A stretch of DNA of 41,274 nt from a bacterium (GTDB lineage: Bacteria > Patescibacteriota > Saccharimonadia > Saccharimonadales > JAUPVS01), in NCBI GenBank assembly GCA_029780855.1, contig JAKOXV010000024.1, positions 1-41,274 of the forward strand, written 5' to 3'. Position 1 is the stretch's first letter, and the number at the start of each line of letters is the position of its first letter. The notes under the pieces were generated by a model that did no database searches, had not been told where the DNA came from, and worked only from the letters and a program-made list of their open reading frames with translations. The position numbers were made by a program, and so were the translations under genes. Positions 27,099 to 40,046 of the stretch are shown in pieces.

Positions 27099-27188
27099 GG
27101 AGAGGTGTCCGAGTGGCTGAAGGAGCACGCTTGGAAAGCGTGTGTGCGGGCAACCGTACCGCGGGTTCGAATCCCGCTCTCTCCGCCA
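27099..27188 (+). tRNA. tRNA-Ser(GGA)
   Basis: GGAGAGG acceptor stem, anticodon arm CACGC-TTGGAAA-GCGTG, long variable arm, GGTTCGAATCC T-loop and encoded CCA. Confidence 0.97.
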
Positions 27189-27568: not shown

Positions 27569-27624
27569 ACGCAGTTTCGTCGTTTACGACTCGTCAGCAT
27601 GATTCATGTACTCATGGACTGCGT
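27569..27624 (-). ncRNA. Type III hammerhead ribozyme (HHR1)
   Basis: Minus strand reads ACGCAGUC^CAUGA-guacaugaa-UCAUG-CUGACGA-GUCG-uaaa-CGAC-GAAACUGCGU. Complete CUGANGA and GAAA core, GUC triplet, perfect stems I (5 bp), II (4 bp) and III (7 bp). Predicted cut between 27617 and 27616. Confidence 0.92.
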
Positions 27625-27809: not shown

Positions 27810-28505
27810 TCAGTCCGACGTCTCTCCGTCATCGATGACGGCAGTCGCCTGACCGTTGGAGCCATGGCCGTTCATGGAGCCGTTGCCGAGGCTCTTCATG
27901 AGCATGGCTCCGAGTCCACCGACGATGTCCTGGTTGCCCTGTGGGGTGATGTGCATCACCTTGAGCTCCATCGGGTCGACTTGTTGCATCGCCGTCTCCG
28001 TGCCGTGGGAGATGATCTCTCCGAACGTCTCGGTGGGGGTGATGACAACGAAGCCGATGGGATGGATGGGGGCAGTCGTGCCTGGCGGCAGAACGGGACG
28101 CTGGACACCTCGCATGCCGCCGTTGTACAGGAAGTGGCGGACGTCCTCGAAGTTGCCGAACTCCGCCTTGTAGGTGGCGGACTTGGCGCCCGTCGGAAGC
28201 GGCACCCCGACCTGCGAGATGACCAACCCGATGTGATCAGGGGGGACCTGAACCCACGGGTAGCGCTTGACCGAGTAGAACGGCCAGACCTTGATGCGCA
28301 TGCCGGGCATGAGCAGGTCGGCCTGGTAGCCGGCCTCACCGTTGAGGGCGATCAGGCTGTTGCTCTTCTTGCCGAAGCGCTTGGTGACGAGACCGACCTG
28401 GCTCGGGTCGATCGCGTGGAATGAATTCTTGAGCACCAGCAACACGAGGAGTGCCACCAGTACTACGGGGATGATGATTTGGAAAGGAACGCTGTCCAGG
28501 TTCAT
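27810..28505 (-). CDS. GC-rich flotillin/SPFH-family-related membrane protein, apparently internally deleted (231 aa)
   Basis: Start MNLDSV at 28505 behind AGAGAAAGAGG. TM helix, then VGLVTKRFG, IALNGEAGYQADLLMPG and RGVQRPVLPPG as recalled for N-termini of long flotillin-like proteins. No Band-7 core or coiled coil visible. A sample line is 41/60 GC. Confidence 0.7.
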   Translation of the reverse strand: MNLDSVPFQIIIPVVLVALLVLLVLKNSFHAIDPSQVGLVTKRFGKKSNSLIALNGEAGYQADLLMPGMRIKVWPFYSVKRYPWVQVPPDHIGLVISQVGVPLPTGAKSATYKAEFGNFEDVRHFLYNGGMRGVQRPVLPPGTTAPIHPIGFVVITPTETFGEIISHGTETAMQQVDPMELKVMHITPQGNQDIVGGLGAMLMKSLGNGSMNGHGSNGQATAVIDDGETSD

Positions 28506-28547
28506 TGAACCTCTTTCTCTGTTGGTGAATGGAGGACAAGCTAAAAA

Positions 28548-28576
28548 ATTATAGTATCTTTTTGTAATATAGTCAA
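28548..28576 (-). promoter_or_regulatory. Near-consensus sigma70 promoter TTGACT-N17-TATAAT for the SPFH-like gene
   Basis: -35 at 28576-28571, -10 at 28553-28548, spacer exactly 17 nt. Confidence 0.85.
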
Positions 28577-28649
28577 TATAATGTGCCTCATACAATACAG
28601 CTTCCGCTTCCTTAGCAGCACAGCCTGAAGCTGCTATACTTTTGCATAT

Positions 28650-29447
28650 ATGAAGATTTATAGTTGGAATGTAAACGGCATACGTGCCGTAGTGCGCAAA
28701 GAAGCACTCGAACCGTTTATCAAGAAGCACCAGCCAGACATCCTATGTCTCCAAGAAACAAAGGCAGAGCAGGGTCAGGCGGTAATTGATCTGCCCGAGT
28801 ACGAGGAATACTGGAACTCATCTAAGACCAAGAAAGGTTACTCCGGAACGGCGATATTCACAAAAATCAAGCCGATTTCCGTCCACAACGATATTCCAGA
28901 AAAGTTTGTAAAGTCAGCCGGACTGCTTGCCGATAGTTATGGTCATAGCAATGACGAAGGACGGGTGATGACAGCAGAGTTTAAAGACTTTTTTCTCGTT
29001 ACTGCATATACACCAAATGCCAAGGATGACCTAACCCGCATCCCGTTACGAGAAAAATGGGATCAGGCGATGATAGCGTACTGTGCAGACCTGCAAAAAA
29101 AGAAACCTGTCGTGTACTGTGGAGATATGAATGTGGCGCATACGGAAGACGACCTAGCTAACCCAAAGCCAAATATTGGCAAAAAAGGGTTTACCGCAGA
29201 AGAACGTTCAGGTTTTGACGACTGGCTGGCAGCTGGGTTTGTTGACACGTTCCGTATGTTTAAACAAGGAAATGGCTACTACACCTGGTGGAGCCATTTT
29301 GCCAATGCTCGCGCTCGTAACGTTGGCTGGCGGATAGACTACTTCCTCGTTTCCGATGCGCTCAAAAGCAACGTAAAGACCGCTGATATTCACCCCGACA
29401 TTACCGGCTCGGACCACTGTCCGGTCAGTATAGAATTGGAGATATGA
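28650..29447 (+). CDS. xth: Exodeoxyribonuclease III / AP endonuclease
   Basis: SWNVNGIRA, LCLQETK, GYSGTA, GDMNVAH, GWRIDYF and GSDHCP. Confidence 0.95.
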   Translation: MKIYSWNVNGIRAVVRKEALEPFIKKHQPDILCLQETKAEQGQAVIDLPEYEEYWNSSKTKKGYSGTAIFTKIKPISVHNDIPEKFVKSAGLLADSYGHSNDEGRVMTAEFKDFFLVTAYTPNAKDDLTRIPLREKWDQAMIAYCADLQKKKPVVYCGDMNVAHTEDDLANPKPNIGKKGFTAEERSGFDDWLAAGFVDTFRMFKQGNGYYTWWSHFANARARNVGWRIDYFLVSDALKSNVKTADIHPDITGSDHCPVSIELEI

Positions 29448-39095: not shown

Positions 39096-39440
39096 TCAGA
39101 CCACGAGCGGCGGATCGAGCACGAAGCCCTTCACGCGCAGGATCTCGTGCGCCTCGCGGATGAAGAGCATCAGCTGACGGACGGACCGGCTGGTCTTGAT
39201 GGCCAGGTTGCCGGGCTCGGCTCCCTTCAGGGTGAGGGAGAACTCCGTGACGTCTCCGAGATCGAAGATCTCCCGGATGGCCTCGCGGATCGGGCCGGGC
39301 ATGCGCTCGCCGCTCTCGTTGGGACGATCGAGCGAGGTGAAGTGGCCGTGTCCGGTCACGTAGTTGCCGTCGAGGGGGATATGAACCCATCCTCCACGCC
39401 AGAGTCTCACCCGTGGTTTCACTGCGGTGCTTCCTGACAT
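39096..39440 (-). CDS. GC-rich hypothetical protein (114 aa)
   Basis: Start MSGSTAVK at 39440 behind GAGAAAGG. Codons are mostly G/C-ending (sample line 40/60 GC). Has its own promoter and terminator; no family recognised. Confidence 0.7.
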   Translation of the reverse strand: MSGSTAVKPRVRLWRGGWVHIPLDGNYVTGHGHFTSLDRPNESGERMPGPIREAIREIFDLGDVTEFSLTLKGAEPGNLAIKTSRSVRQLMLFIREAHEILRVKGFVLDPPLVV

Positions 39441-39468
39441 AGTCGGGGTACCTTTCTCTCGCATTGTA

Positions 39469-39519
39469 TGGCTACAGCTACCACCGGTAAGGGAACAGTA
39501 CCAGTAATAGCTATAGCCA
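39469..39519 (-). promoter_or_regulatory. 21-bp 5'-UTR hairpin
   Basis: UGGCUAUAGCUAUUACUGGUA pairs with UACCGGUGGUAGCUGUAGCCA. All four non-Watson-Crick positions are G-U on the minus strand, which points to an RNA-level structure on that strand. Confidence 0.75.
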
Positions 39520-39577
39520 ACACACTCATCTGCCAAGGTGCGTTTGAGAGCTTAAAACTCAATCAAACTTGAACTTT

Positions 39578-39606
39578 ATTATACTTTATTTTTTAGTATT
39601 AGTCAA
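39578..39606 (-). promoter_or_regulatory. Near-consensus sigma70 promoter TTGACT-N17-TATAAT for the 114-aa gene
   Basis: -35 at 39606-39601, -10 at 39583-39578, spacer exactly 17 nt. Same hexamers as the promoter at 28548-28576. Confidence 0.85.
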
Positions 39607-39626: not shown

Positions 39627-39854
39627 CTACGCTTGAGCCTCAAAACGCTGGACTGCATCGGTGACATCTTTAGCTAATCGGTCTATCTTTTGTTCTAGCA
39701 GTTCAATCTCATCTTCTACATGGGCTAGCTTGGCGAGCGACGTCGCGGTCATACTCTTCAGCTTCTCGGCTTGGGCATTGGCGTCGTTAAGCCGAGCTTC
39801 GCTTTCATAAGGATCCCAAAAACTAAATTGTTCTTCATCAAAATTATCTGTCAT
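39627..39854 (-). CDS. Small coiled-coil hypothetical protein (75 aa), backbone-like GC
   Basis: MTDNFDEEQFSFWDPY...LAHVEDEIELLEQKIDRLAKDV heptads. The ATG directly follows HHR2; the longer 39995 start would run through the structured RNA. Confidence 0.55.
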   Translation of the reverse strand: MTDNFDEEQFSFWDPYESEARLNDANAQAEKLKSMTATSLAKLAHVEDEIELLEQKIDRLAKDVTDAVQRFEAQA

Positions 39855-39857
39855 TTT

Positions 39858-39915
39858 TGCTACCTTTCGTCCTTTTGGACTCATCAGCGTAAGCACACAC
39901 TTACGGAGGATAGCA
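39858..39915 (-). ncRNA. Type III hammerhead ribozyme (HHR2)
   Basis: Minus strand reads UGCUA-u-CCUC^CGUAAG-ugugug-CUUACG-CUGAUGA-GUCC-aaaa-GGAC-GAAAGG-UAGCA. Complete core, CUC triplet, stem I 6 bp, stem II 4 bp, stem III 8 bp with one bulged U. Predicted cut between 39906 and 39905. Confidence 0.92.
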
Positions 39916-40046
39916 CGGAGTGGTTGATTCAGAAGAGGGAAGAGTCTTACGCTGGAGGCGTAATGCTCGATTCCATTCTGAACCAACACACTCACGTGAC
40001 CTGAAATTCAGGATTTGTGAACGGATGTTCCGTTCAGGAGGGAAGG

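Follow-up and report, generated by a model that had tools for sequence, protein, structure and literature searches.

What does a hammerhead ribozyme motif do at the end of a bacterial operon that encodes a ubiquitin-like (Ubl) protein? The purpose of the hammerheads found in bacterial genomes is an old question, and a 2019 review describes it as still undefined and in need of more work (PMC6765202). Perreault et al. (2011, PMC3088659) describe prophage hammerheads that flank single genes or short blocks, and propose that transcripts are cut by them into gene- or operon-length mRNAs. A literature search, which did not extend to the locus lists in the supplements of PMC3088659, found no report of hammerheads in Saccharibacteria or of cassettes that end in a ribozyme.

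The locus discussed here is one in which such a motif, HHR2, stands behind the last gene of a Ubl operon. The window, by which we mean the whole stretch of DNA that was analysed, starts at base 1 of a contig of 116,975 bases and covers 41,274 of them; the genome measures 872 kb (approximately 46% GC, 97.8% complete). In public records, homologous genes appear under titles that name Saccharibacteria or Saccharimonadales. The window genes recognised by Pfam are ordinary cellular ones (ABC transporters, cytochrome bd, MMPL, sortase and gltX), and a Pfam scan of the window ORFs found no phage genes. The features referred to below are collected in Table 1.

Table 1. Features of the locus and of its relatives on the same contig; numbering is that of the contig, whose first base is also the first base of the window.
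Feature	Position	Strand	Basis and remarks
HHR1, sister hammerhead	27569-27624	minus	Rfam 48.9 bits, above cut-off
Next cassette	39096-39606	minus	Same strand as the operon; promoter-like site 39606-39578 (11/12 matches), GC-rich ORF 39440-39096, U-less hairpin
75-codon ORF	39627-39854	minus	Native GC, 0.46; AUG 4 nt past HHR2 stem III
HHR2, type III hammerhead	39859-39914	minus	Sequence reading, fold, covariance models
Direct repeat, 93 nt, exact	39913-40005; second copy 43158-43250 (beyond window)	minus	blastn against genome, 100% over 93 nt
Long imperfect hairpin, GAGUG-u-GUUGGUUCAGAA pairing with UUCUGAAUCAACCACUC	39998-39914	minus	Minimum-energy fold
Hairpin 2, CCUGA-auu-UCAGG	40012-40000	minus	Reading and minimum-energy fold
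Hairpin 1, UGAACGGA-aca-UCCGUUCA	40036-40018	minus	Reading and minimum-energy fold
Ubl gene, 82 aa	40047-40295	minus	C-terminus -ANG; stop TGA 40049-40047
E1-like adenylyltransferase, short, 218 aa	40309-40965	minus	Pfam ThiF 5.8e-23; GC3 0.79
JAB/JAMM peptidase gene, 206 aa	40965-41274 (3' part, in window); runs to 41585	minus	Pfam Prok-JAB 0.0012, below cut-off
First operon gene, 438-aa membrane protein	41585-42901 (beyond window)	minus	
HHR3, hammerhead	67373-67412 (beyond window)		Genome scan
HHR4, hammerhead	68086-68125 (beyond window)		Genome scan

The hammerhead motif and the operon in front of it

The original prediction, made from the sequence of the window, was of a full type III hammerhead closing the operon, and each of its elements can be located. 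Stem III pairs 39914-39907 with 39865-39859 (GCUA(U)CCU/AGGUAGC) as three base pairs, a single bulged U and four base pairs, stem I is CGUAAG/CUUACG with UGUGUG as its loop, and the core CUGAUGA is followed by stem II (GUCC/GGAC, loop AAAA) and then by GAAA. The cleavage triplet is CUC, which fits the NUH rule, and its C17 is 39906, so the predicted cut between 39906 and 39905 had been correctly placed. The base pairs next to the core (G10.1-C11.1, C1.1-G2.1 and A15.1-U16.1) are intact, with no mispair touching the core, and a fold prediction for the 61-nt piece alone returns the three-way junction, in which stems I and II are closed by loops and stem III is open.

Covariance models differ in how well they recognise this piece. 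The Rfam model Hammerhead_3 (RF00008) matches it at 39865-39907 with 29.2 bits (E 0.00043 when 701 bases are searched, 0.025 for the whole window), a score below the Rfam gathering score of 48.5 bits, which is a curated threshold and not a biochemical criterion; only model positions 7-48 take part in the match, because the bulged stem III is not aligned. A second model, which we call R2, was built from 27 hammerhead family members of other genomes, with the source genome left out, and under it HHR2 scores 64.9 bits (E 2.6e-16). At its barest the core can be written CTGANGAG-N8-24-CGAAA; the window holds this pattern at two places, HHR1 and HHR2, whereas 100 shuffled windows hold it 0.06 times on average and none of them as often as twice. 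That the motif is present is close to certain, and by its make-up HHR2 is probably a hammerhead of the working type, with self-cleavage predicted.

The three hairpins between the Ubl stop codon and HHR2 are exactly as first described, two small ones and a long one, and the minimum-energy fold of 39855-40046 contains all of them (-75.2 kcal/mol, z -7.2, 0/200 shuffles as stable). The long hairpin is directly 5' of HHR2 and has no U-tract. A scan of the window placed no terminator-like site anywhere from the Ubl stop to HHR2. Where the long hairpin meets HHR2, its final pairs run into the outer end of stem III, and in the fold the outermost stem III pair and the hairpin base are in competition.

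The operon itself has a GC content of 60-68% (GC3 0.79-0.83) and had been taken for a ubiquitin-like conjugation operon, a plausible identification that the ThiF, JAB and SAMP2/1RWS matches support. The 82-aa Ubl protein alone has no match in Pfam; among 20 members of its family, Pfam finds ThiS in 5/20 and SAMP2 in 3/20, and a profile of the 20 homologues aligns with PDB 1RWS (5e-9) and with SAMP2 (5LDA_B, 1.2e-8) up to the last residue. The alignment ends in -NG in 17/17 rows of the CPR type and in -RGG in 3/3 rows of the NC10 type. Judged by these profiles, the protein is one that bears the ThiS/MoaD/SAMP beta-grasp signature through its C-terminal glycine. The E1-like protein matches BilD in PADLOC (2.4e-12) over residues 20-121, which is the adenylation part only, and PADLOC has no match for the other three operon proteins, which leaves the operon outside its definition of BilABCD. 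In the translated JAB gene an E...HxH-x7-S-xx-D motif can be read, which we take to be the JAMM motif.

The first gene of the operon encodes a membrane protein for which the protein atlas has no usable match. Its C-terminal 150 residues contain an invariant Cys in YP.Y..FCFG, and the model of this domain (pLDDT 81) finds its best fold matches among RWD (Z 6.1-7.8) and E2 (Z 5-5.6) proteins. Foldseek returned nothing at E 0.001 or better for the domain and a PDB sequence profile nothing meaningful. These fold scores are middling and "E2-like" is therefore a lead only, under which the first gene would supply an E2/RWD-like candidate anchored in the membrane. With it, the ThiF-type E1, the JAB peptidase and the SAMP2/ThiS-like Ubl make up a plausible conjugation set.

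Downstream of HHR2 comes the 75-codon ORF, which would ride on the 3' cleavage product, since its AUG follows stem III so closely. It has no similarity to the ORF in the corresponding position of a related locus (L031), whose hammerhead follows a similar coupling-protein gene. The cassette beyond it carries no hammerhead and converges on gltX. Promoter-like sites were located upstream of cassettes, by a promoter scan and by eye.

The hammerhead family and its cassettes

HHR2 is one of four hammerheads in the source genome, all on the same contig. The resemblance to the layout of HHR1 that had been pointed out is real, both having a GC-rich ORF, a structured spacer of approximately 185 nt and then the ribozyme. 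HHR3 and HHR4 share 88% identity with HHR2 over the core region; compared by eye, the differences from it fall in stem III and at two stem I base pairs, and pairing is kept at each of them. RF00008 matches with E 0.01 or better occur in 27/101 genomes of the order, a tally that includes the source genome and G040 (the latter excluded from all other counts), and also in 1/14 control genomes; none was found in the 8 other genomes of the family to which the source genome belongs (0/8). Only HHR1 among the hammerheads of the 101 genomes passes the Rfam cut-off, so that standard annotation misses the family.

Alignment of 31 members shows that pairing is maintained by compensatory change: 91.5% of cells pair, as against 34-44% in slid controls, and 14/16 pairs change on both sides, figures that lean high because the rows were picked by a structure-aware model. 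The loop features singled out in the original prediction, a loop I beginning with UG and an A-rich loop II, recur in the family, in which loop I begins UGUG in 17/31 rows and loop II is AAAA in 18/31. Nearly every hammerhead is directly preceded by a long hairpin. At 39/45 hammerheads the GC content of the 600 nt upstream exceeds that of the 600 nt downstream (0.539 vs 0.478, in related genomes that are not independent of each other). The ribozyme is not special to Ubl operons: throughout the order it is a general module at the 3' ends of accessory cassettes that are rich in GC and bear promoters.

The recurrence of the arrangement after homologous operons was assessed through 150 relatives of the E1 protein, for which the named organisms are all of Saccharibacteria type with the exception of one MAG labelled Binatia. 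It had been suggested that a covariance-model scan downstream of homologous operons would be informative, and that their lack of the ribozyme, together with an absence of read-through transcription, would count against the idea. The scan, made with the family model on 34 homologous E1 loci, supports the idea: 8/34 carry a same-strand hammerhead 303-539 nt after the end of the E1 gene, and most (26/34) have none. These eight are among 22 low-GC loci of the CPR type (8/22), with 0/12 among the GC-rich loci, of which 11 are titled NC10/Methylomirabilota or Planctomycetota and one 'uncultured bacterium'.

The operon is found at varied sites: upstream of a clpX-like gene or of secA, in the grpE-dnaK interval, and in the one that separates greA from a P-type ATPase gene. 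In one homologous locus (L036) it follows the same coupling-protein gene as in the source genome (69% identity). The grpE-dnaK site allows the boundaries of the insert to be seen. In two relatives of the genome concerned (G101, locus L045) the spacer between the two genes measures 121-123 nt and has a CIRCE operator and no ribozyme, and in three other relatives only an antisense cassette is present, closed by a long hairpin and lacking a ribozyme. The G101 spacer contains the antisense cassette followed by JAB-E1-Ubl, a hairpin and a hammerhead that ends 12 nt before CIRCE. The ribozyme therefore belongs to the insert and lies at its 3' edge. Whole-genome scans of G101 and of a further genome, G102, found one hammerhead in each, the one after the Ubl gene. 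Within the family of the source genome an empty site could not be identified in this way, the adjoining coupling-protein gene having matches only at 36-38%, which is the level of paralogues.

Terminators, repeated end modules and the role of the ribozyme

If the hairpin and hammerhead form mRNA ends, operons without them may be expected to end in some other way. Terminator-like sites were defined as a perfect stem of at least five pairs followed by at least five T in eight bases, and six loci in which the Ubl stop was not pinned (L046, L048, L049, L052, L053 and L061) were left out of the comparison. Such a site, with stems of 7-20 pairs, follows the Ubl stop in 7/11 homologous operons that have no hammerhead; two further ones show bulged stems with a U-run by eye, and L039 and L044 (2/11) have neither terminator nor ribozyme. 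Among hammerhead-bearing Ubl operons, the source included, there is one terminator-like site (1/6), with a weak 5-pair stem, and among all hammerheads the 200 nt before the cut contain one in 4/45 cases. The same rule is positive at 30/238 gene ends of the source genome that have a following gap of at least 60 nt, so terminators in this genome are rare or atypical.

It is chiefly because homologues alternate between terminator and ribozyme that we read the hairpin and hammerhead as a stand-in for a terminator, and we lean, with moderate confidence, towards the view that self-cleavage forms the 3' end of the mRNA in place of one. RNA polymerase would pass the hairpins, because there is no U-tract to stop it, and the ribozyme would then fold and cut between C39906 and C39905. 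The operon mRNA would be freed, its 3' part consisting of a stable hairpin and a tail of 8 nt that finishes in a 2',3'-cyclic phosphate, and the body of the ribozyme would stay on the 5'-OH end of the downstream RNA, here that of the 75-codon ORF. The module would in this way do the job of an intrinsic terminator, forming a 3' end and uncoupling the operon from its neighbours, in a 97.8%-complete genome in which no Rho domain was found. The mechanism is plausible, and what we infer in it is the cleavage, what becomes of each product and any gain to the cell. Cleavage does not stop polymerase, so a substitute for a terminator is only half an explanation.

The end module is also duplicated as DNA, which brings in a different view of what it is for. 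The second copy of the 93-nt repeat separates the GC-rich cassette next door from the promoter-like site that precedes the Ubl operon and has no hammerhead behind it, so that the operon sits between two exact copies. The Ubl cassette of L042 likewise lies between direct repeats, in two blocks (80 nt at 93% identity and 83 nt at 90%), and the hammerhead falls within the second. Such duplication fits a model in which recombination at these modules stacks the cassettes. The hairpin-hammerhead block might, then, be mainly a junction or homology site at the level of DNA for stacking and swapping cassettes, like attC in function, with RNA cleavage secondary or serving the spread of the element. The position of the ribozyme at the very 3' edge of the insert, the patchy distribution of the family (27/101 genomes in the order and 0/8 in the source family) and the occurrence of the same operon at different sites all suit such an element, as does a single 260-nt contig from another study (depth 2.4) in which the Ubl end and the repeat are joined to the flank of the other copy. 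This contig may represent a circle, a tandem or a graph artefact, and the last could arise because the repeat exceeds the word of the assembler and the depth is so low. No integrase is found nearby, the only match in the genome to a tyrosine recombinase (PF00589) being on another contig, C9, and none among the window ORFs; a search of the genome turned up neither a reverse transcriptase (RVT_1) nor RtcB; and no attC-type family was matched in an Rfam scan of the region. Six of the seven other Ubl loci examined lack a convincing flanking repeat, three having no repeat of at least 16 nt and three only a mismatched pair of 16-18 nt, and the compensatory changes that keep core and helices point to selection on RNA. 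We consider a mainly DNA-level role rather unlikely.

It could also be that the ribozyme serves the gene behind it, trimming read-through transcripts to a defined 5' end in the manner of RiboJ. Here that gene would be the 75-codon ORF, with its AUG so close to stem III and the sequence GAAAGG in the core as a possible ribosome-binding site. In favour of this, start codons are found 6-11 nt past GAAA at four hammerheads (HHR2, HHR4, and those of L013 and L031). The next gene is co-directional after all hammerhead-bearing Ubl operons (8/8) and after 7 of 12 hammerhead-less ones, the other five being followed by a convergent gene (hypergeometric p approximately 0.05, computed by hand). A general bias of this kind downstream of hammerheads was rejected: across the family the next gene is co-directional in 29/45 cases (64%), against a baseline of 68% (533/780 adjacent pairs of the source genome). 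Several hammerheads abut the end of a convergent gene, and the ORFs that follow HHR2 and the L031 hammerhead are dissimilar, which makes this role improbable. That HHR2 is a chance motif, a decayed relic or a hammerhead misplaced behind the Ubl operon by assembly is very improbable. The sub-threshold Rfam score and the bulge in stem III might suggest the first two, and the join between operon and HHR2 does pass through the repeat, inside which the contigs of the source run break. In the probable source run the repeat unitig has a depth of 40.6 and its flanks 9.8 and 13.6; the repeat thus exceeds the sum of the flanks, which implies more copies in that community. The rarity of the core pattern, the R2 E-value and the same arrangement in eight independent assemblies all argue against chance or misplacement, and, given two direct repeats, no order other than the assembled one would pass through every segment exactly once.

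Some further relations within the cassettes were explored. A direct repeat shared by the 5' UTR and the 3' spacer was considered and rejected, since the longest shared word averages 6.8 nt in 27 cassettes and 6.7 nt in 702 mismatched pairs; for this reason we leave the 11-mer that 39517-39527 has in common with the 93-nt repeat without an explanation and do not take it for a rule. In 26 single-gene cassettes the 5' UTR pairs more strongly with the 30 nt that precede the cut than it does in mismatched combinations (-20.7 vs -17.0 kcal/mol; p 1e-4, with composition not controlled), and for the Ubl operon the value is no better (-18.6) than in controls (-18.7 and -16.0).

Known systems and the meaning of the locus

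The prophage hammerheads of PMC3088659 resemble the present ones in their consensus core and in standing between genes of changing identity. They differ in that the units described here have no phage genes or integrase around them, have a promoter of their own and carry cargo that is GC-rich relative to the host, nearly always include a U-less hairpin, alternate with intrinsic terminators and occur in a CPR host. With Rfam Hammerhead_3, HHR2 has in common the core, the three-helix type III topology and the NUH site, and differs in its score, which is below the cut-off.

Phage morons are units of promoter, gene and terminator with a deviant base composition. The cassettes are like them in being self-contained units of foreign-looking composition between native genes, and unlike them in lying on a cellular chromosome and not in a prophage, and in having a hairpin and ribozyme in place of the terminator. 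Integron attC cassettes provide a similar picture, in that an imperfect hairpin comes after variable cargo and the stacked units repeat their end modules; here there is no intI and no attI, the cassettes bear promoters, the end module contains a catalytic RNA, and attC-type core sites were not seen in a search by eye. RiboJ is a synthetic hammerhead insulator that makes upstream and downstream RNA parts independent of each other, unlike which HHR2 is natural and stands at the 3' end of a unit and not in a designed 5' UTR. A retrozyme-like or circular RNA element, which would call for a ribozyme on either flank and for a reverse transcriptase or RNA ligase, was also considered and rejected, the nearest same-strand hammerhead being 12 kb away in a genome in which RVT_1 and RtcB were not found.

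As for the cargo, it shares with the archaeal SAMP/UbaA/JAMM and the bacterial Bil (BilABCD) systems a Gly-ending beta-grasp Ubl, a ThiF-type E1, a JAB peptidase and possibly an E2-like protein. It differs from them in that the CPR Ubl ends in -NG and not in -GG and in the small size of the E1 (only 218 aa), and the E2-like call comes from fold scores of Z 5-7.8 alone.

A more far-reaching idea, which we hold with low confidence, is that these loci represent an undescribed cassette system of Saccharibacteria, made up of a promoter, GC-rich cargo, a U-less hairpin and a hammerhead. Its 3' module would be dual, forming the 3' end of the RNA and acting as a DNA homology or recombination site for stacking, duplication and exchange between genomes without an integron integrase.

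What the locus adds is a multi-gene Ubl cargo, the alternation of terminator and ribozyme, a comparison with empty sites and duplicated end modules. Bacterial genomic hammerheads are given by it a testable job, at the ends of GC-rich cassettes, and homologous operons that end either in a terminator or in a hairpin and hammerhead amount to a natural experiment on the ribozyme as a former of 3' ends. The locus also draws attention to a Ubl-E1-JAB system found across Saccharibacteria, with a possible membrane-bound E2. For CPR genomes more widely, the hammerhead family marks the edges of accessory cassettes and so helps in reading their mosaic pattern of GC content.

Repeated and GC-rich sequence around the Ubl cassette

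The cassette that ends in the hammerhead HHR2 is adjoined by a second GC-rich cassette, and the ends of both carry the same exact direct repeat (see table). The unitig containing this repeat has a depth of about 3-4 times that of its flanks in the source run, and in another study the Ubl end and the repeat are joined, in one low-depth contig, to the flank of the other repeat copy, a join that is what a circular or tandem form would give.

Features of the hammerhead-bearing contig
Feature	Coordinates	Strand	Content
ORF of 306 codons preceding HHR1	window 27810-28730	minus	mixed composition
Third GC-rich unit	window 39096-39606	minus	promoter-like site, 114-codon ORF and U-less hairpin
Direct repeat, exact, 93 nt	window 39913-40005 and contig 43158-43250 (L005 4158-4250)		ends of two adjacent GC-rich cassettes
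GC-rich cassette adjoining the Ubl cassette	contig 43333-45218 (L005 4333-6218)	minus	372-aa and 257-aa proteins

The larger protein of the adjoining cassette gives a faint match of the GmrSD_N/DUF262 type (E 0.058). The smaller has no known family and shares a short motif, recognised by reading, with a 260-aa ORF that precedes the hammerhead of locus L014. The third unit is without a hammerhead and is convergent with gltX; its ORF belongs to no known family, and the 11-mer GAGTGTGTTGG is common to its leader and the 93-nt repeat.

Surroundings of HHR1

The 5' part of the ORF preceding HHR1 lies in sequence of 45% GC and its 3' part in sequence of 64% GC, and its true start may be further in, or it may be a mosaic gene. 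A sub-threshold Rfam match to a plastid 3' UTR family on the minus strand (27143-27185; 39.8 bits vs 68) is most likely the mirror of a tRNA gene encoded on the opposite strand (27099-27185).

Gene content and homologous operons

Searches of the whole genome, which is 97.8% complete, found no Rho RNA-binding domain, RtcB or reverse transcriptase, and only one tyrosine recombinase. Among the loci with a homologous E1 (L036-L068), operons of the Saccharibacteria type encode a Ubl that ends in -NG. The homologues from Methylomirabilota (NC10), whose E1 proteins are 34-38% identical, have -RGG as their Ubl tail, and a single locus (L046) has -GRG.

The grpE-dnaK spacer

A Ubl cassette and hammerhead occupy the spacer between grpE and dnaK in the genome G101, and the corresponding loci of its relatives were compared (L098-L109). 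In seven genomes, G101 included, dnaK was not found within the approximately 1.5 kb of downstream sequence, and the spacer length in L099 is uncertain because a run of N (~1967-2050), representing masked or withheld bases, lies directly 3' of grpE. Two genomes have a spacer of 121-123 nt; in three others it extends to 734-839 nt and contains a long hairpin together with an ORF that is antisense and richer in GC. Across this set of loci the spacer is an insertion hot spot.
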